From Nanobdellota archaeon (GTDB taxonomy: Archaea > Nanobdellota > Nanobdellia > Pacearchaeales > GW2011-AR1): a stretch of DNA of 64,000 nucleotides. Positions 995 to 59,690 of this stretch are shown piece after piece. The stretch spans positions 35,140 to 99,139 of the forward strand of contig JBBSYC010000001.1 of assembly GCA_038045445.1 (NCBI GenBank), read 5' to 3'. Positions within the stretch are counted from its first letter, which is position 1; each line of letters opens with the position of its first letter. The position numbers and the translations under genes were made by a program. The notes beneath the pieces were generated by a model that was given only the letters and a program-made list of their open reading frames with translations, was not told the DNA's origin and made no database searches.

Positions 995-3237
995 AAAGTA
1001 AGTTAATTTTAATTTTGGGAACTCTTTTGATTGTATCTATTGTTTTAGGGCTGTATTTCAATGAAAGTATCTCTATTGGTTCTAAGGATTTGAAGAGATT
1101 TAGTTCTTACGATGAATTAGCTTCTTATGTTAATGAATCTAACAAGGAGAATTATGGATTTAGGACAGATTCAGAAGAATCTGTTTTTACTCCCGAATCT
1201 GCTTCTGTAACAAGCACTTCTGGTGCAAAATCTGATTCTGTTGCTTTTGCTAATGATTATTCTGCAACAAATATTCAAGTTATAGGAGTTGACGAACCAG
1301 ATACTGTTAAAAATGATGGCAAATATATTTACAAGGTTAATGGGAACAAAGTTTATATAATTCAGGCTTATCCGGCAGATTCTGCTAAGATTATTTCGGA
1401 ACTAAAGTTTGATAATTATGTTAATGGCATCTTTGTTGATAAAAATAGATTAGTAGTCATTGAATCTTCTTACGGTTATTATGGTGGGTATACTGGTCCT
1501 GAAATAGCTGTTTCTAGTACTTATGAAAAAGCGGTTTCTCCCGAAGAAGGATTAGTTATTCCAGAACCTTCTCCGATGAATGACCCCCAGCCAGGAATTG
1601 GAAAACCTTCAGATTATGAAGAAGTTATTACTATTCCAGAGAATTATGGCTCTTCTGTAAAGATTCATGTTTATGATATAGAAGATAATCTTATTTTAAA
1701 CCCTGAACTACTCGATACATTTACTGTTGAAGGAAATTATTATACTGCAAGGCTTATTGAAGGGAATGTTTATGTTGTTTCTAATAAATATATAGGAAAC
1801 TCTGAACCTGTTGTTCCGTTTTTTGGAGTCGGAGAGGATGTTGAAATAGCTGATGCAAGCAGAATTTACTATCCTGGATATTATCAATCTGACTTGATGT
1901 TTACTTCTGTAATGGCAATAGATATTTCTTCTCTCAAATATGAGGGAGACGTTTTTCTTACAGGAACAAGCAATTCAATATACTTTTCTAAAGATTCTAT
2001 ATTTTTAACAAGTGCTAAACCTTATGATTATTCAAAGATTAATATTCAAGGAGAATTGGAGATTTATTCAAAAATTTTATCTGGAAGTGCTAAATCCGAA
2101 GCTGAAGAGATTCTTGATTCTGACACAGACTACTATTCTAAATCTCAGAAATTGAGCCTTGTTGTTCAAGAATACTTCAATGGACTTGATGATTACGAAA
2201 AGAAAGATTTTGAGGATTCTTATTCTGATGCTTCAAAAAGCTATTACTCTGAAATATCTAAAGAATATGAGAAGACTTTAATTCATAAAATAAGAATAGA
2301 TGGTCTTGATGTAGATTATGATGGTGTTGGAGAAGTTCCTGGCTATGTTTTAAACCAGTTTTCTATGGATGAATATGAGGGCAATTTTAGAATTGCAACA
2401 ACTACTGGAAATATATTTGGAAGCTTTCAGAACTCTTTGAATCACGTTTATATTCTTGATGATGGTCTTGAAATTGTTGGAAGTGTAGAGAATCTTGCTT
2501 CAGGAGAAAGAATTTATTCGGCTAGATTTTTAGGAGATAAAGCATATATGGTTACATTTAGACAGATTGATCCATTGTATGTTATTGATTTGTCTAATCC
2601 AAAATCTCCAGAAGTTCTTGGATATCTAAAGGTCACTGGATTTTCAAATTATCTTCATCCTATTGGAGATAATTTACTTATGGGGATCGGACGCGAGGTT
2701 ACATTAGATGGAAAACAGAAGGGCTTGAAGATTTCTATTTTTGATGTTTCTGATTTTGAGAATCCTAAAGAAATTGATAATTATGTTGTAGAATCAGATT
2801 CTTCATATTCAGAAGCCGAATATGAACATAAAGCTGTTTTGTTTGATGATGAGAAAGATTTGCTTGTAATTCCTGTTTCTTATAATAATAACATTAATGG
2901 AAGAGATTGGGAATATTGGCAAGGAGCATTTGTTTTCACAGTTACTGATGAAGATGTTTCTTTGAAAGGGAAGATAGACCATACTATTGAAGTAAACAAA
3001 GGCGATGGTGTTTTGGGAGCTGATGTTGAACCATCTTATTATGGAGTTACTCAAGGATATGTTTCAAGGTCATTGTTTATAGAGGATGTTCTTTATACTA
3101 TTTCAGATTATTTGATTAAGGCTAATAGCTTATTGGATTTGAAAGAAATAAAAAGTGTGAAGCTTGATTTTACAGAACCAATCTATACAATTTATGGGAC
3201 TGGAACTTCTGTTTCTTCTGTAGGGCTGTTGGATTGA
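991..3237 (+). CDS. large secreted protein with N-terminal signal/TM anchor, possibly beta-propeller-like (COG4880-like)
   Basis: Start moved to ATG 991, 8 nt after the SD-like AGGAGG at 977-982 (the track's 907 start overlaps the upstream gene). N-terminus MKSKLILILGTLLIVSIVLGLY is hydrophobic. 748 aa, no catalytic motif recognised. Confidence 0.45.
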   Translation: MKSKLILILGTLLIVSIVLGLYFNESISIGSKDLKRFSSYDELASYVNESNKENYGFRTDSEESVFTPESASVTSTSGAKSDSVAFANDYSATNIQVIGVDEPDTVKNDGKYIYKVNGNKVYIIQAYPADSAKIISELKFDNYVNGIFVDKNRLVVIESSYGYYGGYTGPEIAVSSTYEKAVSPEEGLVIPEPSPMNDPQPGIGKPSDYEEVITIPENYGSSVKIHVYDIEDNLILNPELLDTFTVEGNYYTARLIEGNVYVVSNKYIGNSEPVVPFFGVGEDVEIADASRIYYPGYYQSDLMFTSVMAIDISSLKYEGDVFLTGTSNSIYFSKDSIFLTSAKPYDYSKINIQGELEIYSKILSGSAKSEAEEILDSDTDYYSKSQKLSLVVQEYFNGLDDYEKKDFEDSYSDASKSYYSEISKEYEKTLIHKIRIDGLDVDYDGVGEVPGYVLNQFSMDEYEGNFRIATTTGNIFGSFQNSLNHVYILDDGLEIVGSVENLASGERIYSARFLGDKAYMVTFRQIDPLYVIDLSNPKSPEVLGYLKVTGFSNYLHPIGDNLLMGIGREVTLDGKQKGLKISIFDVSDFENPKEIDNYVVESDSSYSEAEYEHKAVLFDDEKDLLVIPVSYNNNINGRDWEYWQGAFVFTVTDEDVSLKGKIDHTIEVNKGDGVLGADVEPSYYGVTQGYVSRSLFIEDVLYTISDYLIKANSLLDLKEIKSVKLDFTEPIYTIYGTGTSVSSVGLLD

Positions 3238-3302
3238 GTTGGATTTTTATGCAATGAATAATTAAAACTAAACTTCTAAACTATTAAAAACCCTTAATTG
3301 TC

Positions 3303-4355
3303 TTGTTCATTAACATGCTTACTAAAAAACAACTTTCTGAAATACGCGAGCATCTTGAAATGGCACAGAATCCAATATTCCTTTATGATAATGATGTAGA
3401 TGGGCTTTGCAGTTATGTTCTATTGAGAAGATTTATTGGTCGTGGAAAAGGCATTGCAGTAAAATCGCACCCAAATGTAGATATTAATTATGTTAAGAGA
3501 GTTCAAGAGTTGAATGGCGATTGTATATTTGTTCTTGATAGGCACAGTCTTGGAAGAGAATTTGTTTCTGAAATTTCTATGCTTCAATTACCTATAGTTT
3601 GGATAGATCATCATGATGTTTCCGAGGAAAGACATGATTATCGTCTTCTTTACAGATTTAATCCCTCAAAAAATAAAAGAAAGAGCTATGAGTCTACAAC
3701 ATATCTTTGTTATAAGGCTACAAAACGTGCTGAGGATGTATGGCTTGTTTTAATGGGGTGCATAGCAGACCATTATATGCCCGATGTTGTTGAAGATTTT
3801 GTTAAAAATTATGCTCCTTTTTGGGGAAAGAATATAACTGAACCATTTCAGGCATTATATTCAACTGGAATAGGTCGTTTGGCAAGAGCACTTAGTTTTG
3901 GGTTGAAGGATTCTATTACCCATGTTGTTGAATTGCAGAATTTTTTAATTAATTGTAAAGACCCTTATGAATTGGAACATGAACTTGAAAGAGAAAGCGC
4001 TTTTGGAATAAAGTATAAAGAAATAATGAAAAAATATTCTTCTCTACTTAATGATGCTTCGAAGAGTGTTCCGGGAAAGTTACTTTTTTATAATTATGGA
4101 GGACAGATGAGCATAAGCGCAGACCTTTCTAATGAACTTTCTTATATTTTTCCTAAATCTTATATTTGTGTAGCTTATAGCGCTGGACCAATAACTAATA
4201 TTTCGTTGAGGGGAGATAATGTAAAAAAAATAATTTCTGAAATATTACCCTTATTTGATGGGGCTACTGGCGGAGGCCATAAGGATGCAGTGGGTTCTAG
4301 AATAAGGACTGAAGATATAGATAAATTTAGGATGGAGCTTGAGAAGAGAATTTAA
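3303..4355 (+). CDS. DHH/DHHA1 family phosphoesterase (NrnA/RecJ-like)
   Basis: DHH motifs DNDVDGLCS and WIDHHD; DHHA1 GGGH motif (ATGGGHKDAVG) near the C-terminus. Confidence 0.75.
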   Translation: MFINMLTKKQLSEIREHLEMAQNPIFLYDNDVDGLCSYVLLRRFIGRGKGIAVKSHPNVDINYVKRVQELNGDCIFVLDRHSLGREFVSEISMLQLPIVWIDHHDVSEERHDYRLLYRFNPSKNKRKSYESTTYLCYKATKRAEDVWLVLMGCIADHYMPDVVEDFVKNYAPFWGKNITEPFQALYSTGIGRLARALSFGLKDSITHVVELQNFLINCKDPYELEHELERESAFGIKYKEIMKKYSSLLNDASKSVPGKLLFYNYGGQMSISADLSNELSYIFPKSYICVAYSAGPITNISLRGDNVKKIISEILPLFDGATGGGHKDAVGSRIRTEDIDKFRMELEKRI

Positions 4356-4379: not shown

Positions 4380-5072
4380 ATGGCAGATAGAAAAATACCT
4401 ATTCATATTGGAATTATTCCAGATGGCAATCGTAGATGGGCTGTTTCTAAGGGTCTTGATAATCTTAAAGGGTATTCTAAAGTAGATTATAACCATTTGG
4501 AAAGTTTACTATTGGAAGCTAAAAAGTTAGGAGTTAAGTATGTTAGTTTATGGTTTTTTTCAACTGAAAATTGGAAAAGACCTAAAATAGAAGTTGATTT
4601 TCTTTTTAATCATTTTTTGAAAAATACTGATAAATTGTTGGAAGGGTGTTTGAAAAATAAAGTTAAAGTAAGGCATTTAGGCAGGAAAGATAGGTTGCCC
4701 AAAAAAGTTCTTGATGCTTTGGATAAACTTGAGTCTGAAACTTGCGGTTTTAAGGACTTTACTGTTCTTTTGTGCGTGGATTATGGGGGAAGAGATGAAA
4801 TATTGAGGGCAGTAAATAAAGTTTTAAGTTTAGGAGTCTCAAAGATTGACGAAGATAGTTTGAGGAATCTTTTGGATACGAAAGATATCCCAGACCCTGA
4901 TTTAATAATAAGGACATCTGGTGAAATGAGGCTTAGTGGATTCATGCCCTTTCAATCAGTTTATAGCGAATTTTATTTTCCAAGTATGCATTTTCCAGAT
5001 TTTAAACCTGAAAATTTGAAAGAGGCTGTTGAAGAATACTCTAAGCGTAAAAGAAATATGGGGGGGAATTGA
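4380..5072 (+). CDS. uppS: undecaprenyl/dehydrodolichyl diphosphate synthase (cis-prenyltransferase)
   Basis: IGIIPDGNRRWA signature near N-terminus, typical 230-aa length, ...RTSGE.RLSGF... C-terminal motif. Confidence 0.85.
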   Translation: MADRKIPIHIGIIPDGNRRWAVSKGLDNLKGYSKVDYNHLESLLLEAKKLGVKYVSLWFFSTENWKRPKIEVDFLFNHFLKNTDKLLEGCLKNKVKVRHLGRKDRLPKKVLDALDKLESETCGFKDFTVLLCVDYGGRDEILRAVNKVLSLGVSKIDEDSLRNLLDTKDIPDPDLIIRTSGEMRLSGFMPFQSVYSEFYFPSMHFPDFKPENLKEAVEEYSKRKRNMGGN

Positions 5073-5115
5073 TGTTCCTTAGAATAATTGTATTTTTATA
5101 GTTGGCAGTTTATTT

Positions 5116-5433
5116 TTGATTATGATTTATATTGTTAATTACGCTATTAGATGTGGTGTTTCTAATGGTCTTGGAACTAAGTTCTCCTCATCGTTAGATG
5201 AAGAATTGAGATTTTCCTCTATTTATGATATGCCTGAAGAATTAGTTGGTCATGCGAAAAATGAAATTAGACGCAGTATTTTATTGAGGGGTTATTTGAC
5301 TGATCCAGAGGATTCTTGTGTTACTGCAAGACTTGTTTCATTAAGAAGAGATGATGGGGTTAGAGTTCCATTTGAAGATGGAACAAATGTTAGAGTAAGC
5401 CAGGTAGAACTTTTACTTGCTCTCCTTGATTAA
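5116..5433 (+). CDS. hypothetical protein
   Basis: ORF track only; no recognisable motif. Confidence 0.25.
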   Translation: MIMIYIVNYAIRCGVSNGLGTKFSSSLDEELRFSSIYDMPEELVGHAKNEIRRSILLRGYLTDPEDSCVTARLVSLRRDDGVRVPFEDGTNVRVSQVELLLALLD

Positions 5434-5544
5434 TTTGATTTCTTGTTTTGTTTCTAAAGGAATATTGATTGGGAAATTTGACTGTATGATTGTATAAATC
5501 AATTATTCAATTAACTTAATATATCCCTGTTTTTTATTTGATAT

Positions 5545-6912
5545 ATGGGCAAACTAAAATGCGGACTTGAGATACATGCTTATCTTGTGACTGCTGAAAA
5601 GCTTTTCTGTCGTTGTAAGGCTTCTCGGGAAAGAGGGCTTGAGCCAAATACTTTAATTTGTCCGATATGCACCGGACAACCTGGAGCTAAACCAATGGCT
5701 CCAAATTCTAATGCTATAGAAAAGGCAGTGCAAATAGCTTTGCTTCTTGGATGCAAGGTTAATACAAATATTCCATGGATGCGTAAACATTATGATTGGC
5801 CAGACTTGCCTAAAGGATATCAGACTACTATGAGTGGACCCCATGCTACTCCCTTGGGGGTTTCTGGAAACTTTGAAGGGATTAGTATAGATAGTATGCA
5901 TGTTGAAGAAGATCCTGCATCTTGGGATCCAAAAAATGGAGCTGTAGATTATAACAGAAGCGGGTTACCCTTAGTAGAGATTGTAACTGCTCCAGATTTT
6001 AAGAATGCGGATGAAGTTTATGTTTGGGTCAATAAACTTGTTCATGCTTTGAATTATTTGAAGGCTATAGATACAAATGCTGGAATAAAGGCAGATGTAA
6101 ATGTCTCTCTTGTTGATGAAACTGGAAAGCAAAAGACAGAACGTGTTGAAATTAAAAATATTACATCTATCGAGGCTATGAAATCCGCTATTTTATTTGA
6201 GCATCAACGCCAAATTAATGAAGGAAGTGTTAGAGAGACTAGAAGATTTGATGAAGCTAAGGGAATTACTATGAGAATGAGGGGAAAAGAAGTTGCTGAT
6301 GATTATAGATTCATAGTTGACCCTGATTTGCAAATGGTTGTCTTACCTAGAAGTTTTGTAGAGAAACAAAAGAAACTTATTCCAGAGCTCCCTTCTGTAA
6401 AACTTGATAAGTTGATTAAGAAATATAAAATAGATGAAAAGAATGCTACTGTTCTTTCTAAAGATATTGATATAGTTTTATTTTTTGAAGATGTTTCAAA
6501 GCATATTGAGGGGAAATTTGCTTTGTCTTGGGTTACTGTTGAGCTCTTGAGAGTTTTAAATTATAACAATAAAAGATTAGGTGAAGTTTCTATTTCAGTT
6601 GAGCATTTTGTTAAATTACTTAAGATGGTTAGGGACAAGAAGATTACAGAATTGCAAGCTAAGCAGATATTGAATAAGTTTGTGCCTACGAGTTTTGACC
6701 CTTCTAATGTTGAAGGAAGAATAAGTGGTGAGAAGGAGCTTGAGCCAATTGTGAAGAAAGTAATTAATGATAACTCAAAAGCTGTGCTTGAATTTAGAAA
6801 TGGAGATATAAAAGCTTTTAATTTTTTGATTGGAGAGGTAATGAGAGCTACAAATAGAAGGGCTGATTCTGTTGCCGTTAGAAAATTGATTGATAAAATT
6901 ATTGGTAAATGA
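5545..6912 (+). CDS. gatB: aspartyl/glutamyl-tRNA amidotransferase subunit B
   Basis: GLEIHAYL plus KLFCRC...CPICTGQPGAKP zinc-Cys cluster typical of GatB; 455 aa. Confidence 0.85.
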   Translation: MGKLKCGLEIHAYLVTAEKLFCRCKASRERGLEPNTLICPICTGQPGAKPMAPNSNAIEKAVQIALLLGCKVNTNIPWMRKHYDWPDLPKGYQTTMSGPHATPLGVSGNFEGISIDSMHVEEDPASWDPKNGAVDYNRSGLPLVEIVTAPDFKNADEVYVWVNKLVHALNYLKAIDTNAGIKADVNVSLVDETGKQKTERVEIKNITSIEAMKSAILFEHQRQINEGSVRETRRFDEAKGITMRMRGKEVADDYRFIVDPDLQMVVLPRSFVEKQKKLIPELPSVKLDKLIKKYKIDEKNATVLSKDIDIVLFFEDVSKHIEGKFALSWVTVELLRVLNYNNKRLGEVSISVEHFVKLLKMVRDKKITELQAKQILNKFVPTSFDPSNVEGRISGEKELEPIVKKVINDNSKAVLEFRNGDIKAFNFLIGEVMRATNRRADSVAVRKLIDKIIGK

Positions 6913-6984: not shown

Positions 6985-7056
6985 GGCCCTATAAGTTAAC
7001 GGATAGACTCTCCGGCTTCGGACCGGAAAACCGAGGTTCGATTCCTCGTGGGGCCG
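6985..7056 (+). tRNA. tRNA-Arg (anticodon TCG)
   Basis: Hand-folded cloverleaf. Acceptor stem GGCCCTA/TGGGGCC (7 bp, one G-U). D stem AGTT/GACT. Anticodon stem TCCGG/CCGGA with loop CTTCGGA (U33, anticodon UCG at 7018-7020). T stem CGAGG/CCTCG with TTCGATT loop. Discriminator G. No encoded CCA. Region is GC-richer than its surroundings. Confidence 0.85.
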
Positions 7057-11808: not shown

Positions 11809-12411
11809 TTGAATTTTATGGATGATAAAGTTGCTTTGTTTGATATGGATGGGACTATTGCTGATTATACATTACAAATGCGTAGAGACTTAGCTAGATT
11901 GGGTTCTGAGCAAATTCCTGAAAGATTGCACGGGGAAGAAATTCCTGATTGGTTAGAAGCTAGAAAAAATATTGTCAGCTCTCAAATTGGATGGTGGAGG
12001 AATTTACCCGTTATTTCTAGTGGTATTGAAATTTTAACTCTTTGTAAAGAGATTGGATTTGGGATTCATATTCTGACACAAGGTCCAAGAAGTAAGCCAT
12101 CTGCATGGGGAGAAAAACTTCAATGGTGTGAAGATAAAGTTCTTCCAATTGACCCCAATTATGGAATAACTGTGACTAGAAATGGGAAAGGTTTACATTA
12201 TGGAAGAGTTTTAGTTGATGATTGGCCCCCATTTATGGAAGCCTGGCTTAAACACCGTCCTCGCGGTTTAGGGTTAATGCCTGTTAGTCCTGAAAACGAA
12301 GGTTTTTCTCACCATCAAGTTATTCGTTATAATCCTGAAAATTGGAGAACTTCACAATTAGAACATAGTTTAATGAGAGTCTATAATCGTAATCCAAGAG
12401 AATCTGTTTAA
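11809..12411 (+). CDS. HAD-superfamily 5'(3')-deoxyribonucleotidase-like protein
   Basis: FDMDGTIADY HAD motif I; size and layout resemble the NT5C family. Confidence 0.5.
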   Translation: MNFMDDKVALFDMDGTIADYTLQMRRDLARLGSEQIPERLHGEEIPDWLEARKNIVSSQIGWWRNLPVISSGIEILTLCKEIGFGIHILTQGPRSKPSAWGEKLQWCEDKVLPIDPNYGITVTRNGKGLHYGRVLVDDWPPFMEAWLKHRPRGLGLMPVSPENEGFSHHQVIRYNPENWRTSQLEHSLMRVYNRNPRESV

Positions 12412-12447: not shown

Positions 12448-13719
12448 ATGGCTGAATTGGATTTCAATTATGGAGATAGAGTAAAGATTAGACTTGCAAG
12501 AAATGAAATTGAAGGAATTGTTCTTGAAAGTTATGATAAAGATGTTATCCTTTTGAAGCTGGCTTCTGGATATAATATTGGAATACCTAAGGAAAATATT
12601 CTTGATTTTCTGGTTATTGAAAAATTTAAGGAGAATACTAAAAAAGATGAGATTGTTTTCAAGAATAAGGATAAACCTTCGATTGGACTTGTGATAACTG
12701 GAGGAACTATTGCCGCTAAACTTGATTCACGCACTGGAGGAGTATCTTGGTTGACTAATGTTAATGAATTTTCTAGATTTTATCCAAATATTTTTGAGAA
12801 AGCAAATGTAAAAAAAATATCTGTTCCTTTTATGACTTCTTCTGAAAATATGAATCATGAACATTGGATAACTATTGCTGAACATGTTAAACAGATGCTT
12901 GATGATCCTGAAATTAAAGGAGTTATAGTTACTCACGGGACAGATACTTTGCATTATACTTCTTCTGCTCTTAGTTTTTTTCTCAAGGATTTGAAAAAGC
13001 CTGTTGTTCTCACTTTTTCTCAAAGAAGTATTGACAGGGCTTCTTCTGACGCTGAACTTAATTTGGATTGTGCGGTTCAGATGGCTTTATCTAATTGTGC
13101 AGAAGTTATGATAGTGGGGCATGCTACTCAAAATGATGATTATTGCTTTGCCTTGCGTGGAACAAAGGTGCGCAAATTTCACACATCTAGAAGAGACACT
13201 TTTAAATCAGTTAATTGTGAACCAATTGCCAAAGTCTGGCCGAATAAAATAGAGTTTTTATCAAGTTATAATGCTCGTTCAGATGGATTGAGTAAGTTAG
13301 ATTCAGAATTCTCTGAAAAAGTTGGATTGGTATATTATTATCCAGGGCAGGACCCTTCAATTTTAGATTATTATTTAGTTCAAGGTTATAAAGGAATTGT
13401 TATTGTCGCCACTGGTTTTGGGCATGTTGCTACGGGAGATGTTGAGCATTCTTGGATTCCGACTTTAAAGAGGCTGATAAAACAAGGAGTTGCGGTTTGT
13501 TTTGCTCCTCAGACAATTTATGGGAGGCTGAATCCCAAGGTTTATTCTCCTGGAAGAGAACTTGAGAGTCTTGGAGTGATTTATTTGGAAGATATTCTGC
13601 CAGAGACTGCTTTCGTGAAACTTGGATATGTTTTAGGCCATAAACAGTGGAAGGGTCTTGTTCGTGAGAAGATGCTTGAGAATATTGCCGGAGAGTTTAA
13701 TCCTCTGCTGACAGAGTAG
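12448..13719 (+). CDS. gatD: Glu-tRNA(Gln) amidotransferase subunit D (asparaginase-like)
   Basis: N-terminal GatD-specific domain followed by an asparaginase fold (GLVITGGTIAAK, THGTDTLHYTSSALSF). Confidence 0.85.
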   Translation: MAELDFNYGDRVKIRLARNEIEGIVLESYDKDVILLKLASGYNIGIPKENILDFLVIEKFKENTKKDEIVFKNKDKPSIGLVITGGTIAAKLDSRTGGVSWLTNVNEFSRFYPNIFEKANVKKISVPFMTSSENMNHEHWITIAEHVKQMLDDPEIKGVIVTHGTDTLHYTSSALSFFLKDLKKPVVLTFSQRSIDRASSDAELNLDCAVQMALSNCAEVMIVGHATQNDDYCFALRGTKVRKFHTSRRDTFKSVNCEPIAKVWPNKIEFLSSYNARSDGLSKLDSEFSEKVGLVYYYPGQDPSILDYYLVQGYKGIVIVATGFGHVATGDVEHSWIPTLKRLIKQGVAVCFAPQTIYGRLNPKVYSPGRELESLGVIYLEDILPETAFVKLGYVLGHKQWKGLVREKMLENIAGEFNPLLTE

Positions 13720-13780
13720 TTGTAACTATAGGATGGTTACAGATAGAAAGGTTTAAAAGGGTAGTTTATGCATTTTTATT

Positions 13781-14692
13781 ATGGATGAACCACAAAAGAA
13801 GAAGGAACGTGCTGTAAAATGTGATGGTAGATTTGGATCTATTAGAGAGTTTCTTCATAGCGAAGCAGTTCCAATAGTATTAGAAGATAAACCTATGTTT
13901 TCTTGGAGAGATTTGCAAGATTTATGGAGTCTTATTTATCCAGAAATTTTGGCATATGAAGACTTTAGGGATCCGTACTTTGAGAATAGTAGAGATCCTT
14001 TACGCAGAACTCCTCCTGAATCTGGCTTAGCACTACTTCCTCTTTTTGATATAGCTATACGTCCTGATTTAGATGTAATGATTCGTTACGGGAATGCAAT
14101 GGGTTGTGATCCCAGGGTCTCAGGAAGACTATTTTACATGGGTATGAGATTGTCTAATGTTTTCAACGATTTATTCGGTAGAGGCTCTAAAGATATAAAA
14201 TTACCTAGTGGTGCGGATCTTAGGGGGTATAGTGTAGCCTCTAATTTTGGTATTGGTTCAATATCTCATGGAGGTACTAAAGGTGGAGGTGTTAGATCAG
14301 ATTCTCCTTTTCTTTTAGAAGTATATCAAGATTCTAGAGAAGGAGATACTCGTGGTGAAAGAAATCTAGCGGGAGTCATAGGTTTCTGGCCACAGGATAA
14401 TAATCTGCTGGTCTCTCAAATGCAGTCTTGTAGGAATGCTCAATATCCCGAGGGGGAAAAATTTGGAGTAGTCTCTCTTCGTATTGCAGAAGCATTTGCC
14501 AAACTTGCCGGATTTGATAATGTTTTGGCTTATTCTGCAAGAAACCATCCTCAATTTTTAGCTCACCCTGACAGTTTAGGGCAATTAGAGCAAACATTCA
14601 AATGTATGTGGGACTCCTCTGCACACAAATTAGATTATACAGGATCTAGCACTCAAAATTATTCAAAAAATGTTAAAAATGGAAGCAAGTAA
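13781..14692 (+). CDS. hypothetical protein inserted between gatD and gatE
   Basis: 303-aa ORF with no recognisable motifs. Locally GC-richer than neighbours by eye. Confidence 0.4.
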   Translation: MDEPQKKKERAVKCDGRFGSIREFLHSEAVPIVLEDKPMFSWRDLQDLWSLIYPEILAYEDFRDPYFENSRDPLRRTPPESGLALLPLFDIAIRPDLDVMIRYGNAMGCDPRVSGRLFYMGMRLSNVFNDLFGRGSKDIKLPSGADLRGYSVASNFGIGSISHGGTKGGGVRSDSPFLLEVYQDSREGDTRGERNLAGVIGFWPQDNNLLVSQMQSCRNAQYPEGEKFGVVSLRIAEAFAKLAGFDNVLAYSARNHPQFLAHPDSLGQLEQTFKCMWDSSAHKLDYTGSSTQNYSKNVKNGSK

Positions 14693-14723
14693 TCTTTAAT
14701 AACACCTTTAATTTTCTTTAGAT

Positions 14724-16172
14724 ATGCATGATTGCGCTAAGATTGGCTTCAAGGCTGGACTTGAAATACACCAACAAATTGATTCTCCTAAACTGTTTTC
14801 TGGAGCTCCATCTTTTTTGAGAAGCGACGAACCAGATTATACTATTTCTCGCAAGCTTCATGCTGTTGCAGGAGAAAGCGGGAAGATTGATACTGCAGTA
14901 GGTTATGAATCTGGTTTGGATAAAACATTTTTTTACGAGGGTTACAAAGATACTGTTTCACTTGTGGAGTTAGATGAAGAACCTGCTCATGCTGTCAATG
15001 ACGAAGCACTTAATACCGCTTTGACTGTTGCATTGCTTCTTAATTGCGAGATTTATCCAGTGACTCAAGTTATGCGTAAGACTGTAATTGATGGTTCAAA
15101 TACTTCTGGATTTCAAAGAACTGTTTTAATTGCTCATGATGGGAATATTGAAACTTCTTATGGCAATGTGAGTGTTGCTTCTGTTTGTCTTGAGGAAGAT
15201 TCTGCTCGCGTTATAACTCGCGATAAAAATAAAACTGTTTATCGCCTTGATAGATTGGGAATACCTCTTGTTGAAATTGCTACTTATCCTGATTTACACA
15301 ATTCGGAACAAGTTAAAGAATGTGCTCTTAAGATTGGAGAGATTTTGAGAGCTTGTAAAGTTAAAAGGGGAATTGGAACAATTAGACAAGATGTTAATAT
15401 CTCCATCTCTGGACACGATAGGGTTGAAATAAAAGGATTTCAAGATCCGAAGATGATGATTAAGACCATTGATGTTGAAATAGATAGACAACTGGAAAAT
15501 ATTAAGAATAAAAAATCTATTGGAGATGTTAGAAATGCTTTACCAGATGGTAAAAGTGAATTTCTAAGGCCAATGCCTGGAGCAGATAGGATGTATCCTG
15601 AGACTGACTTGGCTTTATTACGCATTGGAAGAGCTAGAATAGATTTTTTAAAGAAGAACTTGCCCAAACTAAAAACAGAATTGCGTGATGAATTGCGCAA
15701 GAAAGGAGTTAGTGAAGATTTAATTGAGTTAGTTCTTGATTCACAAGATACTTTTGGAGAGTTTGAAACCTTGACAAGAGTTTATCCTGCAGATGCGAAT
15801 CTTGTTGCTAAAATGATTACTTTATGGAGGCAAGAGTTTGCTTCTAAGAATAAAGTAGATTTTGAAAGAGTTAGAAGTGTTTTGAATGAAAGAGTTTATG
15901 AAAAAGTTTTAAGTGCGATTGCAGACTCTAAGCTAGCAATTTCTGATGTAAAATCTGTTCTTGCCAAGGTTATTAGTGGAATTGGTATAGGGGAAGCGCT
16001 TATATTTGATAAAGTGAGTGATGATGATATTGAAAAAGAAATTAGAGATTTAATAAAAGAAAAACCTGGAATGAGAGCTAATGCTTATATGGGAATGTTG
16101 ATGGCTAAGTTTAAGGGAAAGTTAGATGCCAAGAAGGCAATGGAGTTGATTGAGAGAGTTTTGAGAGATTAG
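14724..16172 (+). CDS. gatE: Glu-tRNA(Gln) amidotransferase subunit E
   Basis: GatB/E-family N-terminus GLEIHQQI, LVELDEEPAH, GIPLVEIATYPD, GTIRQDVNISI. Lacks the GatB Cys cluster. Adjacent to gatD. Shorter (482 aa) than typical GatE. Confidence 0.75.
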   Translation: MHDCAKIGFKAGLEIHQQIDSPKLFSGAPSFLRSDEPDYTISRKLHAVAGESGKIDTAVGYESGLDKTFFYEGYKDTVSLVELDEEPAHAVNDEALNTALTVALLLNCEIYPVTQVMRKTVIDGSNTSGFQRTVLIAHDGNIETSYGNVSVASVCLEEDSARVITRDKNKTVYRLDRLGIPLVEIATYPDLHNSEQVKECALKIGEILRACKVKRGIGTIRQDVNISISGHDRVEIKGFQDPKMMIKTIDVEIDRQLENIKNKKSIGDVRNALPDGKSEFLRPMPGADRMYPETDLALLRIGRARIDFLKKNLPKLKTELRDELRKKGVSEDLIELVLDSQDTFGEFETLTRVYPADANLVAKMITLWRQEFASKNKVDFERVRSVLNERVYEKVLSAIADSKLAISDVKSVLAKVISGIGIGEALIFDKVSDDDIEKEIRDLIKEKPGMRANAYMGMLMAKFKGKLDAKKAMELIERVLRD

Positions 16173-17347: not shown

Positions 17348-18670
17348 ATGTTTGATATGGATTATTGGAAACTGCTTTCTGAAAGAAAGATGATTAATAC
17401 ACTAGAATCTAAAGAATCTAAGAATGTTGTTATTGCTGGATGGGTTTATGATCAGCGTGACTTGGGAAAGATTAGATTTCTTGTTTTGAGAGATTTTTCT
17501 GGAGAGATACAAGTAATTGCTCATAAAGATAAAGCTCCTAAGGAAGTTTTTGACTTAATGCAGAAAGCTTCTCGTGAAAGTGTGGTTCTTATTTCAGGGA
17601 AAATTCAAAAGAGTGAAAAAGCTTCTGGTGGAAGAGAGCTTGTTGCTGAACATTTTGAAATTCTTTCCGAGGCTGAACATCCCTTACCTATTGATGTATC
17701 TGACTTTTCAAAAACAGAATTGCCTAAGAGGCTTGATTATAGGTATGTTGATTTTCATAGAAGGAGAACACAAGCAATCTTCAAGATACAGAGCACCATT
17801 TCTACAGCATTCAAGGATTTTTTTGTTTCTAAGAGCTTTATCGAAATGCAACCTCCTTGTTTGATAGGTGTTGCTTCTGAAGGTGGAGCAGATGTTTTCA
17901 AAGTAAAATATTTTGAAAAGGAAGCTTGTCTTGCTCAAAGCCCCCAATTGTATAAGGAAATGGTTGCTTGTTCCATGGAAAAAACTTTTATGATTACACC
18001 TGTTTGGAGAGCTGAAAAACATAATACGGTCAGACATATAAATGAGATTCGCCAGATGGATATTGAATGTTCTTTCATGAGTCAGATGGATGTCATGAAG
18101 TTAGAAGAAGAATGTGTTAAGCATGTTGTTTCTGAAGTTATAAAGAAAAATAAAGCTGAAGTTGAACTTTTGGGTTTGAAATTAAAAGTGCCTACTGCTA
18201 AATATATTTCTTATGATGAAACTATTTCATTGTTAAAGAAGAATGGAATCAAAATTTCTATTGGAGATGATTTGAATCCTGAAGCTGAAAAGAAACTTGG
18301 GGAGTTATTTCCAGATACTTTGGTTTTTGTTCATTCGTGGCCTTCTTCGCTTAAACCATTTTATATTATGCCTAAAGGAGGGGATGCGAATTCTGATTAT
18401 TCGGAAGGTTTTGATTGTATATATAATGGTCTTGAGATAACATCTGGAGGGCAGAGAATTCATACGCCTGATTTGTTATTGAAAAGAATAAAACATAAAG
18501 GTATGAAAATAGATGGTTTAATGGATTACGTTAATTCCTTTAGATATGGTGCTGCTCCACACTCTGGATGGTCTATAGGTCTTGAAAGATTAACTATGCT
18601 TTTGTGTGAACTTGATAATGTCAGGGAAGCAACGATGTTCCCCAGAGATAGAGATAGACTTACGCCTTAA
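17348..18670 (+). CDS. aspS: aspartyl-tRNA synthetase (archaeal type, probably non-discriminating)
   Basis: OB-fold N-terminus, class II motifs (FRAE..HNTVRH, GGQRIH, GLERL). Confidence 0.9.
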   Translation: MFDMDYWKLLSERKMINTLESKESKNVVIAGWVYDQRDLGKIRFLVLRDFSGEIQVIAHKDKAPKEVFDLMQKASRESVVLISGKIQKSEKASGGRELVAEHFEILSEAEHPLPIDVSDFSKTELPKRLDYRYVDFHRRRTQAIFKIQSTISTAFKDFFVSKSFIEMQPPCLIGVASEGGADVFKVKYFEKEACLAQSPQLYKEMVACSMEKTFMITPVWRAEKHNTVRHINEIRQMDIECSFMSQMDVMKLEEECVKHVVSEVIKKNKAEVELLGLKLKVPTAKYISYDETISLLKKNGIKISIGDDLNPEAEKKLGELFPDTLVFVHSWPSSLKPFYIMPKGGDANSDYSEGFDCIYNGLEITSGGQRIHTPDLLLKRIKHKGMKIDGLMDYVNSFRYGAAPHSGWSIGLERLTMLLCELDNVREATMFPRDRDRLTP

Positions 18671-28155: not shown

Positions 28156-29463
28156 ATGGGTATTGTGGAAGATAAGGTGAAGGTTTACTTATCTAGGATA
28201 AAAGAATATAATAAATTGGTTAATGCTTTTATTGAATTGAGTAATGAAAATGAAATTCTTTCTGAAGCTAGAATGCTTGACTCTAAAACTAAGAAAGGAA
28301 GACTTTATGGTTATGTTATCGGAGTAAAGAGCAATATTTGCGTAAAGGGGTTACATGCTTCTTGCGCTTCTAAAACTCTTGAGGATTATAAAGCACCTTA
28401 TGATGCTACTGCAGTTAAAAGAATTAAAGAAGAGGATGGCCTCATTATAGGAATGCTTAATTGTGATGAATTTGCATGTGGTTGGACTGGAGAAACAAGC
28501 GCTTTTGGAAAATCTCATAACCCTGCGGTTCCAGACCATATATCAGGAGGGTCTTCTTCTGGTGCGGCGGTTGCTGTTGCTGCAGGTTTTTGTGATGTTG
28601 CTTTGGGAAGCGATACTGGGGGGAGCATAAGAGTTCCTTCTTCATTTTGCGGTGTTGTTGGTGTAAAGCCCAGCTATGGTTGCGTTTCCAGATATGGGTT
28701 GATTGATTTGTCAATGTCTCTTGATCAAATAGGACCTATTTCTAAGAATGTTTCTGATTCTGTTTTGTTGTTAGATGTAATAAAAGGTTTGGATGAAAGA
28801 GACACTACTACTTTTAATTCTAAACCTATTAAGATTGAGAAAATTAGCAAAATCAAATATGGAATTGTTAGAGTTTCAGAAGTTGATTCAAGAATATTAG
28901 ATTTGATTGACTCTTTTTTGGCAAAAATCTCAAGTAAATTAAAATGGTCTGAGAAAAAGGTTAATTTGAAATATATTAATTTTGGGATTCAGACTTATCA
29001 TCCTTTGGTATGGACAGAGTTCTTTTCTGCTACTCGCAGAATGGATGGAAGACGATTTGGTAAAAAAATAGAAGAATCCGCAGGTCCTGAAGTTTTAAGG
29101 AGAATTTTAGGGGGAAGCGAAATTTCAAGAGCGGAATTTAAGGGCCAATATTATCAGAAGGCACTTGCCGCCAAGGATTTAATCAAGAGAGAGTTTGATA
29201 ATGTCTTTAAGGAAGTTGATTGCTTAATAATGCCTACTGTTCCGATGTTGCCTTGGAAGTTTGGTACAGAGGTTTCTATGAACAAGTTATATGCTATAGA
29301 TGCTTTAACTATTCCCGGAAACCTTGCGGGTGTTTGTGCTATTTCTATCCCTATTGGAAAAATAGAGAGTAAACCTGTTGGATTGCAGGTTGTTTGTGCT
29401 AAAGGGGATGAGAGCAGGATGTTTAGTATTGCTAAGGAGATAGAAAACATTGTGAAAGAGTAA
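28156..29463 (+). CDS. gatA: aspartyl/glutamyl-tRNA amidotransferase subunit A (amidase)
   Basis: Amidase signature GGSSSGAAVAVAAGF...GSDTGGSIRVPS. Confidence 0.8.
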   Translation: MGIVEDKVKVYLSRIKEYNKLVNAFIELSNENEILSEARMLDSKTKKGRLYGYVIGVKSNICVKGLHASCASKTLEDYKAPYDATAVKRIKEEDGLIIGMLNCDEFACGWTGETSAFGKSHNPAVPDHISGGSSSGAAVAVAAGFCDVALGSDTGGSIRVPSSFCGVVGVKPSYGCVSRYGLIDLSMSLDQIGPISKNVSDSVLLLDVIKGLDERDTTTFNSKPIKIEKISKIKYGIVRVSEVDSRILDLIDSFLAKISSKLKWSEKKVNLKYINFGIQTYHPLVWTEFFSATRRMDGRRFGKKIEESAGPEVLRRILGGSEISRAEFKGQYYQKALAAKDLIKREFDNVFKEVDCLIMPTVPMLPWKFGTEVSMNKLYAIDALTIPGNLAGVCAISIPIGKIESKPVGLQVVCAKGDESRMFSIAKEIENIVKE

Positions 29464-37930: not shown

Positions 37931-40105
37931 ATGAAAAGAGGATTTTTTTTAGTTGTATCTGTTGCTTTTGCTATTTTAGCTCTTTTTGTTTTATATCTTG
38001 ATGTTGCCAGAGATTGCGGTTCTCTTAGGTGTGTTGCGCGTTATGTTTCTACCGGAGAGAGTTTATCAGACTCTCAATTCCCTCCTAAAAAAATTCAGTT
38101 TTTTGACTCCAGTTCAGATTCTAATATTCTTAGTTTTGCTTTGAAGAAGACTATTTCTAAGATTATTTATCCTTTTGTGGAACATGAAGAGGTTTTGCTT
38201 CAGGCAGGTCTTGAGCCACCGGTTATAACTGGAATAGCTCCTCCTTCCTTTTCTAGTTCTTCCGATACAGATGTTTCAGTAATAGGACAGAATTTTGACC
38301 TTGATGCTTTGCTTTTAATCGGAGGAGATGTTATTGAGAGCTCTAGGCTGACTATAACCCCAACAGAAATATTATTTAGTTATATTGCCAATGAACTTCC
38401 TGCAGGAACTCATCAGGTCTCTGTTACAAACCCTTCTTCAGGACTTGTTTCGAATTCCTTTGGATTAACATTGACTACTAGCCCAGTTATAACTTCTCTA
38501 AGTCCACAAACTATAGTAAATAATGATAGTTATATTGTAAATATAAATGGAAACGACTTTAATCCTTTTGCAGTAGTTTTTGAAGGAATTATATTAGATA
38601 GTTCTTCTGGATTGTGGCAATATGTAAGCCCTAATTTGATTAGACTAAATATTCCTTCCGGTTTATCTGCGGGAGATTTTGATATTCAGATATATAATTT
38701 GGATGGTGCTCTGTCTAATATTATGGTTCTTAGGTCCAATTATCCATTTGTTTATTTCTTGAGTTCTTCTCCTTCTCCTGGAGATGTTTTGCCAGGTAGC
38801 TCTTTTGTTTTGGATGTTTCAATAAATAGTGTTGTTTTCACAGAACATGAAGAAGTTGTTTTAAGTTTGCAGACTCCTTTAGGAATTACTTCTAGTTTTG
38901 TTGGTTCAGACAGGTGTATTCCTAATATTCCTTCTACTGTCGTTCAAGGTATTGCTTATTGTAACCTTGCTGTTAATTTTGATGTTGGTTCTATTCCAAG
39001 TGGAAACTATAATCTCTCTATTAATTCGGTTTCTGCTTTGAATTCCGTGAAGGGTCAGATTAACTTTTCTTTGAATGTTATTCCTTTAGGTCAACCTGAT
39101 GGGGATTTGGATGAAGTCCCAGATTCTATTGATTTGTGTCCTAACACTCCTGCAAATGTAAAGACGACTTACGGAATTAATGTATTCAATGGATGTCCTA
39201 TTCCTAATATTTATCCAATGACTGCTTCGCTCACAACTGACTTCTCAAATGTTCCTAATCTATTTGCTGTCGAGAATTTGAGAATGGGCATTGCTGGAAA
39301 CTCTAGCGTTACTTTTAGGGCTCCCATTAGCATGTTATGGGTGAATACTACTGCAGTTCCTTCTCATCATTTGCCTATAGGTCTTGGAGAATGGGCAATT
39401 AACTTATCAGAGAATTATGTTTTCATTAATTCTACAAAGAGACCTATCTTTAATGTTTCTGCTGAAGTAACTTTCTTTGATACTGGACTTACTAATCCTG
39501 TTTTGTATAGAGATGGAGTTATTTGTGATTCAAGTAAATGTCATATTCTTTCTTTCGATACAATATCTGGAGATGTTGTAGCAAATGTTTCTGGGTTCTC
39601 TAGCTACTCTGTCTCTCAAGGTTCTTGTGGAGACTCTATGTGTTCTATTGCAGAGACTTGCTCTAGCTGTTCTGCTGATTGTGGTTCATGTCTAAATAAC
39701 GGTCCCCCTCCTAGTGGTTCTTCTGGTGGCGGTGGAGGCGGTGGGGGATCTAAGGGTAGTAAGGGTTCTTCTTCGATAGTTTATCGTGCAACTCCTCAGT
39801 GTAGCGATGGAGTGGATAATGATTTAGACTCTTTAGTTGACTATCCTAACGATTTAGGTTGTCTTAATACTAGTGATGATACTGAAGTGGATTCTAGTCC
39901 TCTTGTTGGAGATTCAGAGGGACAAGGAGAATCTTTAGATTCGTCTTCTTCTATAAAAGACAAAGATTATAGTATGGGGGTTGTATTTTGGATAGTCCTT
40001 GTTGTGCTTCTAGGAGGCATAACTCTTGTAATAGTAAGGATATTAAAGTATTCTCGTAATCGCAAAAAGTTTTCAGATCTTGCCGAGATGACTTCTAAAT
40101 CATAA
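37931..40105 (+). CDS. giant surface protein 1 (724 aa)
   Basis: N-terminal TM/signal, IPT/TIG-like domains, the shared cassette, then the C-terminal module described in the summary. Tail KYSRNRKK. Many N-x-S/T sequons. Confidence 0.7.
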   Translation: MKRGFFLVVSVAFAILALFVLYLDVARDCGSLRCVARYVSTGESLSDSQFPPKKIQFFDSSSDSNILSFALKKTISKIIYPFVEHEEVLLQAGLEPPVITGIAPPSFSSSSDTDVSVIGQNFDLDALLLIGGDVIESSRLTITPTEILFSYIANELPAGTHQVSVTNPSSGLVSNSFGLTLTTSPVITSLSPQTIVNNDSYIVNINGNDFNPFAVVFEGIILDSSSGLWQYVSPNLIRLNIPSGLSAGDFDIQIYNLDGALSNIMVLRSNYPFVYFLSSSPSPGDVLPGSSFVLDVSINSVVFTEHEEVVLSLQTPLGITSSFVGSDRCIPNIPSTVVQGIAYCNLAVNFDVGSIPSGNYNLSINSVSALNSVKGQINFSLNVIPLGQPDGDLDEVPDSIDLCPNTPANVKTTYGINVFNGCPIPNIYPMTASLTTDFSNVPNLFAVENLRMGIAGNSSVTFRAPISMLWVNTTAVPSHHLPIGLGEWAINLSENYVFINSTKRPIFNVSAEVTFFDTGLTNPVLYRDGVICDSSKCHILSFDTISGDVVANVSGFSSYSVSQGSCGDSMCSIAETCSSCSADCGSCLNNGPPPSGSSGGGGGGGGSKGSKGSSSIVYRATPQCSDGVDNDLDSLVDYPNDLGCLNTSDDTEVDSSPLVGDSEGQGESLDSSSSIKDKDYSMGVVFWIVLVVLLGGITLVIVRILKYSRNRKKFSDLAEMTSKS
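39121..39681 (+). repeat. copy A of a 561-bp near-identical cassette shared by giant genes 1 and 2
   Basis: Read directly; about 3 mismatches over 561 bp against 46345-46905. Encodes DSIDLCPNTPANV...SADCGSC. Confidence 0.85.
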
Positions 40106-50300: not shown

Positions 50301-50527
50301 TTGATTCTGAATTGATAATAGGATCTACTTCTGGTTCAAATTATACCTCTGGCAACTCAGGGGCTGTCGGAGGAAGGGATTCTGGAGAGAATATGAGCTT
50401 AATCTTTTGGGTTCTTCTTGTATCTCTTTCAATTGCTATAATTATTGTATTTGTTTTAATTATAAGACATTATAGGGCGCGTAAAAGAATAGATTCACTA
50501 ACAAGATTTTCTAATTACTCTAAGTAA
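47381..50527 (+). CDS. giant surface protein 3 (1048 aa)
   Basis: N-terminal TM, large uncharacterised ectodomain, IPT-like domain, the same C-terminal module. Tail RHYRARKR. Confidence 0.65.
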   Translation: MFLFMRVNYFWYLFFVLILSIILITYFVKVNNLEGSFSTPRDDGILGSLEDSEGQLSPLGGDESFIIENTLAPAGASLEGTNAVGFDSSKGVYYFEFRDFNDILLDRYEINISNSEVQKGILKIRESRRNFFPVVDGGTLYRTPSGQILQPIDLALKSQINSFNHQQTSLNSVQFQYDETVSSETETVLLTKQYTFSIKGGTLIIEVKQIDSPLTPTSNYAGFTFGQANNVENPRNISIPYMEIAPITVVNNSFFSSTYIDWSLSNSNYYPQLVWSNSNSPGNFKNSYSSKYVARQSNTYNNIEETGYVSVSNNVEDLMMVPHRQPSPYRNQLDSRPVISVWNLWGNFQTSEGVLSYFHDSLGIDNLTVIYNRWSQNFCAPPHDLPAAMNLGGNEALLRLVNKAKSYGYLFALYEVYSDLNPSSPFWEKNQDKISLNSSGARRLGWFAESCPFPQNYDLSSDKSLFFAQNISPQIKETFNPNAVYTDVIPKQYMTNGGIDYSATNLNSSSIGATMQNAMHLFDFLHSNYNSPLFGEGGQVPISPRVMYGGLVDSIGGEIVGREFAPILPDYELKIIKPLMANQGMGMPQRWVGDGTIHHVGDLDIANLDLDKYNSMAISYGHTGYIDELLSQTNPLYYLSKYYVTEYYLFREIQERYLSSPVISVLYENSSGNMIDLNEALRQNLDFSKTKLRTSYSNGLVVYVNHGSSIWVVTQSGKTYYLPLNGWLAIAPDFIEYSALVDQNGNPSISGHRADYIYSPNYLFVNGRGVETSFGNDYFNNPIIATNILVIKPTGWIVLETLDPNIGGQFVPSVFHLVPSINRINPDNVINNKDNLIRVQGLNFTFTNFLMLNDILLDDSIYQVNIVNSTDITFVLPSGFSTGDYNLTVIHPIGQTGSLTSNSLILRVESPSGTGGSSSGGGSSGGGGGGGSGGPAVGGGLITQCNDGVDNDGDLLIDYPNDLGCSSSNDNSEIDSELIIGSTSGSNYTSGNSGAVGGRDSGENMSLIFWVLLVSLSIAIIIVFVLIIRHYRARKRIDSLTRFSNYSK

Positions 50528-59628: not shown

Positions 59629-59690
59629 TTTGTAACTTTTGAATAGTTATAATTAAATAGATTTATATATGATTCTTTTTTTGGTTTTTT

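Follow-up and report, generated by a model that had tools for sequence, protein, structure and literature searches.

The genes for the two subunits of the archaeal Glu-tRNA(Gln) amidotransferase, gatD and gatE, are separated by an uncharacterised gene in a 64,000-nucleotide stretch of DNA from a Nanobdellota archaeon (contig JBBSYC010000001.1 of assembly GCA_038045445.1). We call the whole of this stretch the window and the intervening gene X. We favour, with moderate confidence, the reading that X is a native and probably ancestral cargo gene of a hypervariable slot that holds a single gene between gatD and gatE, and that it is neither a subunit of GatDE nor a recent insertion of alien DNA. 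The survey behind this reading covers about 30 independent metagenomic loci rather than whole genomes.

The three genes lie on the + strand at the positions that a preliminary description of the window had given them. The left flank of the slot is gatD (12448-13719, 423 amino acids (aa)), X follows at 13781-14692 (303 aa), and the right flank is gatE (14724-16172, 482 aa). Both flanks are conserved, and X encodes an uncharacterised protein restricted to the DPANN archaea. The identities proposed for gatD and gatE are borne out by domain searches. The product of gatD, the glutaminase subunit, contains all three of the Pfam domains GatD_N, Asparaginase and Asparaginase_C and scores 450 and 433 bits against the NCBIfam GatD equivalogs, both above the cut-offs (for NF003217, 450 bits with a cut-off of 310). 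The product of gatE, a short form of the kinase/transamidase subunit, matches the Pfam cradle/catalytic domain GatB_N (PF02934) with 168 bits and TIGR00134 with 396 bits, where the cut-off is 319.55. The gene order around the slot in the window is M1 peptidase (on the - strand), ProRS, NT5C-like, GatD, X, GatE, FabH-like and AspRS.

Different genes occupy the gatD-gatE slot in close relatives

The closest relatives, whose GatE is 77-83% identical to that of the window, keep the order M1 peptidase-ProRS-GatD-slot-GatE-FabH-AspRS, and the slot itself holds one of several unrelated genes. X is found there in the window and in loci L007 and L013. A Fic-domain protein with the canonical HPYEDGNGRSAR motif is present in L010, L011/L035, L012 and L056, and L040 carries Fic and X together. 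The slot of L014 contains a phosphoribosyltransferase (PRTase)-domain protein of 367 aa, a 380-aa relative of which lies upstream of gatE in L033, and that of L016 contains a family 4 glycosyltransferase (GT4) of 454 aa. A nucleotidyltransferase (NT)-like protein of 244-276 aa with a GG...DxD motif occupies the slot in L015, L017 and L029. Thus five classes of cargo, with identical boundaries, are found between GatD and GatE genes that are 71-83% identical, and these classes are scattered over a neighbour-joining tree of GatE. Proteins of one cargo class are far more divergent than the flanks, with identities of 56-57% for X (window or L007 versus L013), 24-43% for Fic and about 22-27% for the NT-like proteins.

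Each of the ten crown-clade loci that cover the gatD-gatE junction has it filled. Elsewhere in the cluster, junctions were filled less often: ProRS-gatD in 4 of 11 loci, gatE-FabH in 4 of 9, and FabH-AspRS in 1 of 8. Seven of 11 close relatives have ProRS abutting or overlapping gatD, so that this junction is only sometimes filled, and the gatE-FabH junction holds an amino-acid permease gene in L010. Outside the crown clade, a more distant clade has a small membrane protein gene on the opposite strand at the gatD-gatE position, and in a Woesearchaeota locus (L034) gatD and gatE abut, 9 bp apart.

In sister genomes, where other genes take its place, X appears dispensable for GatDE. The preliminary description had proposed a check of gatD-gatE synteny in relatives: X lies upstream of gatE in most of the loci that were fetched, and sister genomes have other cargo there.

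Only one class of cargo, Fic, corresponds to a known defence model, PADLOC SoFic (E values of 6.5e-17 and 5e-13). Of the others, one NT-like cargo protein matches AbiEii weakly (E 0.0066), and the GT4 cargo matches Pfam GT4-conflict at E 0.0017, below the gathering score. PADLOC returned no match for X, the PRTase-domain proteins or GT4. For the NT-like proteins there was no match in PDB, NCBIfam or PHROGs, and their label is taken from the GG...DxD motif together with the weak AbiEii match. X is not a diverged Fic protein: BLASTP detected no similarity between them, and X does not have the HxFx(D/E)GNGRxxR motif of the Fic cargo.

A candidate operator and promoters mark the slot boundaries

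Immediately after the gatD stop codon is the palindrome TGTAAC-N9-GTTACA (13721-13741, + strand), a candidate operator for a transcription factor. An exact palindrome of this form is expected 0.05 times by chance in the window. It is kept in 12 of 13 aligned slot loci whatever the cargo. There are only two intergenic instances in the 64 kb, which rules out that it belongs to promoters in general. In a relaxed form, T[TA]AC-N7-13-GT[TA]A, it lies upstream of 19 of 31 X or slot-cargo genes and of only 11 of 226 others from these loci (Fisher p ~2e-13, for loci that are not independent of one another). The palindrome and promoter are also retained by X genes that lie elsewhere than in the slot.

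The RNA transcribed from the palindrome after gatD can fold (z = -2.5). We found no match to it among Rfam families, and the variants in the palindrome arms of L005, L011 and L017 are not compensatory. A conserved RNA hairpin was rejected on these grounds; the non-compensatory variants favour a binding site for a protein on DNA, and the element is best described as a putative DNA operator.

The palindrome is followed on the + strand by AGAAAGGTTTAAAAG (13745-13759), an element resembling a transcription factor B recognition element (BRE) and TATA box about 25-35 nt upstream of the X start codon, which forms the left edge of the variable segment. The element is conserved as GAAAGGTTTAAA(A) before X, Fic, PRTase, GT4 and NT-like cargo alike. 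The left boundary therefore reads gatD stop, TTGTAAC-N7-9-GGTTACA, GAAAGGTTTAAA(A), variable sequence, and then the ATG of the cargo 8-35 nt on. The right boundary is TAATCTTTAATAA (14690-14702, + strand), in which the TAA stop of the cargo shares bases with a TATA-like element situated about 31 nt before the ATG of gatE. In 13 loci it comes, as (A)TAATCTTTAATAA, after X, Fic, PRTase, GT4 or NT-like cargo, and the window has one exact copy of it. We take the two A/T-rich edge elements to be putative archaeal BRE/TATA promoters, one of the cargo and one of gatE. An alignment of the spacers shows that the boundary sequences are independent of the cargo. If these assignments are correct, X would be transcribed from its own regulated promoter.

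One locus retains a trace of how cargo may have been exchanged. In L014 (4650-4800) a 31-codon remnant of the 3' end of a second gatD lies just before the palindrome and promoter of the slot. The remnant is 84% identical to the C-terminus of the window GatD and is unlike the resident gatD. It is a recombination scar, and it points to homologous or illegitimate recombination and not to a site-specific cassette system. We found no integrase in the conserved flanks of the fetched loci, and the left and right boundaries are promoter-like and are not repeats of each other. Integron-like cassettes were rejected because these flanks and boundaries show neither an integrase nor repeated att-like ends. 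We infer that the edges of the slot stayed fixed and that the coding sequence between them was exchanged among relatives, likely by homologous recombination in the conserved flanks.

The second instance of the palindrome in the window, TGTAACTTTTGAATAGTTATA, has one mismatch and lies at 59631-59651. It closely follows a MinD/ParA-like gene, and a 505-aa open reading frame (59691-61208) with no Pfam match begins about 40 nt further on. The same arrangement of palindrome and promoter is found before unknown genes in L003 (4412-5290, - strand) and L009 (9335-10120). Judged by these shared upstream sequences, such genes may form a small regulon together with X.

X is native to the lineage and probably the ancestral occupant

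The preliminary description had noted that X is richer in GC than its neighbours and had taken this as a sign of a different composition. The first part is correct: the GC content of X is 0.382, the highest in the neighbourhood, compared with 0.355 for gatD, 0.357 for gatE and 0.333 for the window. The GC content at third codon positions is 0.227, within the range of 0.17-0.31 seen for the genes of the window, and the surplus lies in codon positions 1 and 2. The synonymous codon usage of X, compared with the pooled usage of the window, gives a chi2/df of 0.98, the fifth lowest of 45 genes. The X protein is rich in Gly, Arg, Pro and Asp and poor in Lys, Ile, Asn and Thr. Since the synonymous usage is native and the protein is rich in these four residues, the GC excess reflects amino-acid composition and not foreign DNA. 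The GC and codon-usage check that had been suggested to reveal a foreign gene thus speaks against one.

We found no match to X in Pfam, NCBIfam, PADLOC or PHROGs, in agreement with the earlier statement that it has no recognisable motif. Its homologues form 41 clusters among 5.8 billion proteins; nearly all are full length and 40-80% identical, and none carries a name that indicates a function. When 1.84 billion cluster representatives were searched exhaustively with a profile, only 68 members of the family came back, and no bridge to a larger family. The homologues whose source is named come almost entirely from Nanoarchaeota metagenome-assembled genomes (MAGs), with a single 'Liptonbacteria' label, and the genome loci that bear the family are labelled Pacearchaeota or Woesearchaeota. 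The nearest relatives of the window itself, whose GC content is 33%, are likewise MAGs labelled Nanoarchaeota, Pacearchaeota or Woesearchaeota. A search of IMG/VR found no member of the family on viral contigs. X is a genuine, natively composed protein that is restricted to the DPANN lineage.

The metagenome scan for X used an alignment (A1) with 39 invariant columns. The conserved blocks are KCxGRF..LR, DPYF..D.LR..P, LVPL, a Gly-rich loop (GIGxxxxGGxxGGGxRSDSPF), GFWxQ...LVSQMQSCRNA..PE...FG and YSA..HP.F. Distant members have lost the Gly-rich loop and kept the other blocks.

X lies immediately upstream of gatE in the window and in L003/4, L005/6, L007, L008, L009, L013, L040, L043-L047 and L050, that is, in most of the fetched loci. 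In L036 an open reading frame on the opposite strand separates the two. Where X and gatE are adjacent, gatD is directly upstream of X, two to three genes away, or absent. The adjacency extends to lineages in which GatE is only 54-64% identical to that of the window.

X is the commonest and probably the ancestral occupant of the slot. An ancestral status is suggested by its position upstream of gatE in the outgroup loci L003, L005, L008, L009, L043, L044, L046, L047 and L050, and by the palindrome and promoter that X genes retain outside the slot. An ancestral X with its operator and promoter would then have had its coding sequence replaced repeatedly.

These observations bear on the suggestion that X was acquired recently from outside the lineage and interrupts a gatDE operon. 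The slightly raised GC content and the lack of recognisable sequence motifs would fit such an event. Against it are the native third-position GC content and synonymous codons, the near-confinement of named homologues to Nanoarchaeota MAGs and of the loci to Pacearchaeota and Woesearchaeota, the absence of relatives on viral contigs, a conserved putative promoter of its own, and the occurrence of X at this position in deep outgroups. We consider a recent acquisition very improbable. What survives of the idea of a horizontally inserted gene is that genes do turn over at this position within the lineage.

In 6 of 18 metagenomic X loci (L001, L039, L042, L048, L049 and L052) X is away from any gat gene. 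One of these is a 517-kb contig (L001/L002) with tandem X paralogues at 5059-5940 and 6001-6894, 54% identical and each with its own palindrome and promoter-like region, and with a SET-domain gene downstream. By eye from the translations, X in L049 (region 2301-4132) is followed by archease-like and RtcB tRNA ligase-like genes, and X in L048 is near genes resembling those for ribosomal proteins and HisRS. These contexts are still related to translation, but genes of this kind are plentiful in DPANN genomes in any case.

The AspRS-like insertion domain is missing from GatE, and X does not replace it

The observation that GatE is short (482 aa) was confirmed, and the shortness has a definite cause. 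Two segments of Methanothermobacter thermautotrophicus GatE (2d6f_C), residues 2-276 and 398-613, align with the window GatE at an E value of 1.5e-92. The approximately 120 residues between these segments (equivalent to about 277-397 of 2d6f_C) make up the AspRS-like insertion (GAD) domain, which is absent from the window GatE; PF02938 gave no match. Because this one domain is missing, GatE scores 441 bits against NF003107, just under the cut-off of 456. The 120 closest GatE homologue clusters (at least 63% identity) are all 468-508 aa long and also without PF02938, so the loss is a lineage-wide trait. GatE proteins with the GAD domain do exist at other DPANN loci (L008, L034).

The preliminary description had also remarked on the absence of the Cys cluster from GatE. 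The CxC near the N-terminus of the M. thermautotrophicus protein (klfCpC) is indeed not present in that of the window (klfSgA). Since the solved structure of Pyrococcus abyssi GatE is likewise without it (klfSpV), this absence is not diagnostic, and the real loss is that of the insertion domain. Compared with the canonical GatDE of M. thermautotrophicus (2d6f) and P. abyssi (1zq1), the window proteins have the same GatD domains and the same cradle/catalytic, helical and tail regions of GatE. They differ from them in the missing insertion domain and in the separation of gatD from gatE by a cargo gene.

The insertion domain is described as specific to GatE, and its pocket has been proposed to dock the non-discriminating GluRS (ND-GluRS) and to exclude the non-discriminating AspRS (PMC2943598). 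In nearly all loci an AspRS gene (17348-18670 in the window) is kept downstream of gatE, at a distance of one or two genes. With the domain lost across the lineage, one may ask how the amidation pathways for Gln and Asn stay apart.

A lineage-specific accessory of the GatDE transamidosome, for example one that docks ND-GluRS or tRNA(Gln) in place of the lost domain, would account for the position of X directly upstream of gatE in most loci and across lineages with 54-64% GatE identity, and the ND-GluRS pocket proposed for the missing domain is a further point in its favour. The sole PDB match of the X profile might also be cited in its favour. This match is to the helical anticodon-binding domain of Thermotoga maritima GluRS; its E value of 0.34 is non-significant and we did not use it as evidence, although in this genomic setting it is suggestive. 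It covers X residues of about 34-128 (13880-14164 in the window), and the entries are 3akz, 3afh and 3al0, the last being the glutamine transamidosome.

The distribution of X argues against this role. Sister genomes whose GatE is short carry Fic, PRTase, GT4 or NT-like cargo in place of X. In L008, X stands beside a full-length GatE of 620 aa that has its GAD domain, which indicates that X does not compensate for a missing domain. X as a detached or replacement insertion domain was rejected on the evidence of L008 and of the Fic-bearing genomes, which carry a short GatE and no X. Six of the 18 metagenomic X loci are away from gat genes, as described above. X is also much rarer than GatE, with 41 homologue clusters against more than 120 GatE clusters at an identity of at least 63% and thousands overall. 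A component of GatDE would be expected to co-occur with it strictly; X is replaced in sister genomes, is found away from gat genes and is far less common. The distribution thus speaks against an obligate subunit; the earlier proposal of an accessory transamidosome factor is not upheld as stated, and we think an accessory role of this kind improbable.

X is predicted to contain a divergent GNAT fold

An AlphaFold (AF2) model of X, built from a 75-sequence alignment, has a mean predicted local distance difference test score (pLDDT) of 94.2 and a predicted template modelling score (pTM) of 0.92; a run on the single sequence reached a pLDDT of only 35. The model has a helical N-terminal domain (residues of about 19-132) and a beta-alpha C-terminal domain (about 150-297). 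In the model the C-terminal domain shows the GNAT core fold, a mixed beta-sheet with the beta4-alpha3-beta5-alpha4 acyl-CoA-binding core. Fold comparison matched it to generic GNATs, and the highest-ranking entries include the N-terminal acetyltransferases NatD, Naa80 and Ard1 as well as enzymes that acetylate small molecules. The helical N-terminal domain had no structural match in the lists returned. By eye, the strand at residues 208-216 is followed by Q-S-C-R-N-A and then by a longer loop with P223 and G229; Q215, P223 and G229 are invariant or nearly so.

Judged by the model, X is a very divergent GNAT-fold protein that cannot be recognised as belonging to any described GNAT family. Its N-terminal domain appears to be novel, with no known relative, and is rich in conserved Arg, Lys, Cys and Asp. 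X is about 10% identical to the GNATs with which it was compared: NatD/Naa40 (4u9w), the tandem-GNAT Orf14 (2wpw), AtaT (6gtp) and TacT (7ak7, 6g96). It differs from known GNATs in having a helical N-terminal domain of about 130 residues with the invariant KCxGRF..LR and DPYF..D.LR..P motifs. AtaT and TacT are tRNA-acetylating toxins with an antitoxin, whereas X has no antitoxin partner. A type II GNAT toxin-antitoxin pair consists of a toxin of about 160-180 aa and an adjacent small antitoxin gene, and X shows neither feature.

On this basis X would be an acyl-transferase, with acyl-CoA as the default donor and aminoacyl-tRNA as a formal alternative, as in the Fem or L/F transferases. The conserved Arg, Lys, Cys and Asp of the N-terminal domain could bind an anionic, probably macromolecular substrate. 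X might then transfer an acyl group onto that substrate as an optional, regulated modifier, not as a stoichiometric partner of GatDE.

The fold also allows a plainer explanation, that X is an ordinary housekeeping acetyltransferase for a small molecule or a protein N-terminus, that its adjacency to gatE was simply inherited, and that the variability of the slot is neutral turnover. This would agree with the generic GNATs among its structural matches, including NatD, Naa80 and Ard1, with the genes gained and lost at other junctions of the cluster, and with the ordinary housekeeping genes around X where it is not next to gatE. It fits less well with the gatD-gatE junction being filled in every crown-clade locus when the others are filled in one to four of 8-11, with same-class cargo being so much more divergent than its flanks, and with a dedicated palindrome and promoter kept for every cargo. 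All the cargo, moreover, consists of group-transfer enzymes typical of conflict or toxin systems (Fic matching SoFic, GT4 weakly matching GT4-conflict). We judge the housekeeping explanation unlikely.

Several points weigh against our own reading of X as exchangeable, GNAT-fold cargo of the slot. Other junctions of the cluster are also sometimes filled, so part of the turnover may be neutral. A functional tie of X to the amidotransferase pathway would still be consistent with its adjacency to gatE across deep divergence. Because the loci of the crown clade are related to one another, the observations that enter the palindrome enrichment statistics are not independent. The census of X is made up of metagenomic loci, from which an X gene relocated elsewhere in the genome would escape. 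The assignment of the GNAT fold comes from a predicted model, and none of the 75 family members matches a GNAT model of Pfam (at E<=1) or NCBIfam, the matches found otherwise being scattered and non-significant. The canonical acetyl-CoA motif Q/RxxGxG/A is not evident in X, which could therefore be without catalytic activity or draw on a different donor.

The slot resembles variable hotspots flanked by core genes

Hotspots flanked by core genes exist in bacterial chromosomes. The gatD-gatE slot is similar to the defence-gene hotspots of P2/P4 elements (PMC9122126): both have conserved flanks, sharp boundaries and unrelated cargo in syntenic close relatives. Some of the cargo is of classes that also occur in defence or conflict systems, namely Fic (matching SoFic), a protein weakly similar to AbiEii, and GT4. 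The slot differs in several ways. It belongs to a DPANN host, and its single gene separates the genes for the two subunits of an essential tRNA amidotransferase. Its fetched flanks contain no integrase, att site or phage context. Its cargo inherits one resident candidate operator and promoter, and a defence role is here a candidate only.

The cargo classes have one property in common. All are group-transfer enzymes, with AMP or phosphate as the group for Fic, a nucleoside monophosphate for the NT-like proteins, phosphoribosyl for the PRTase, a sugar for GT4 and, as predicted, an acyl group for X. Together with the shared operator and promoter and the location in a tRNA-charging cluster, this suggests a common role, such as regulated modification of the translation apparatus during conflict or stress. 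A more specific proposal is that the slot is a regulated effector-cassette site of the Pacearchaeota, in which one operator and promoter serves interchangeable group-transfer enzymes. As effectors in conflict, dormancy or antiviral defence, these would all target tRNA, aminoacyl-tRNA or translation factors. We put this forward tentatively and regard it as doubtful in this specific form. If it is true, X would found a new family of acyltransferases directed at tRNA or aminoacyl-tRNA, with the helical N-terminal domain as an RNA-binding module, and the slot would be the first described hotspot of the defence type to lie, in an archaeon, within an essential pair of genes for aminoacyl-tRNA amidation.

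In the searchable literature we found no account of a gatD-gatE slot, of the X family or of a GatE without the GAD domain. DPANN genomes are tiny and little is known of their gene exchange and defence, and the slot offers a compact and tractable example of cargo exchange, probably driven by recombination. The Fic, GNAT-like, NT-like, PRTase and GT4 cargo proteins are candidates for new translation-targeting or conflict enzymes. X itself, on the strength of its model, appears to be a new protein family within the GNAT fold, and it should not be annotated as a Gat subunit.

Neighbouring genes

The NT5C-like (5'-nucleotidase) gene of the window (11809-12411, 200 aa) lies between ProRS and gatD. 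The window also contains a gatB gene (5545-6912, 455 aa), followed by a tRNA-Arg gene (6985-7056), and a gene for a GatA-like amidase (28156-29463, 435 aa). Since GatB and a GatA-like amidase are encoded in addition to GatDE, the organism has amidotransferases of both the GatDE and the GatCAB type. Several related loci have gatB upstream of gatD in divergent orientation. Further along the window is an open reading frame of 2410 aa (40124-47356), with neighbours of 724 aa (37931-40105, with a TIG domain) and 1048 aa (47381-50527). These have a high GC content at second codon positions, and the three presumably encode giant surface proteins.

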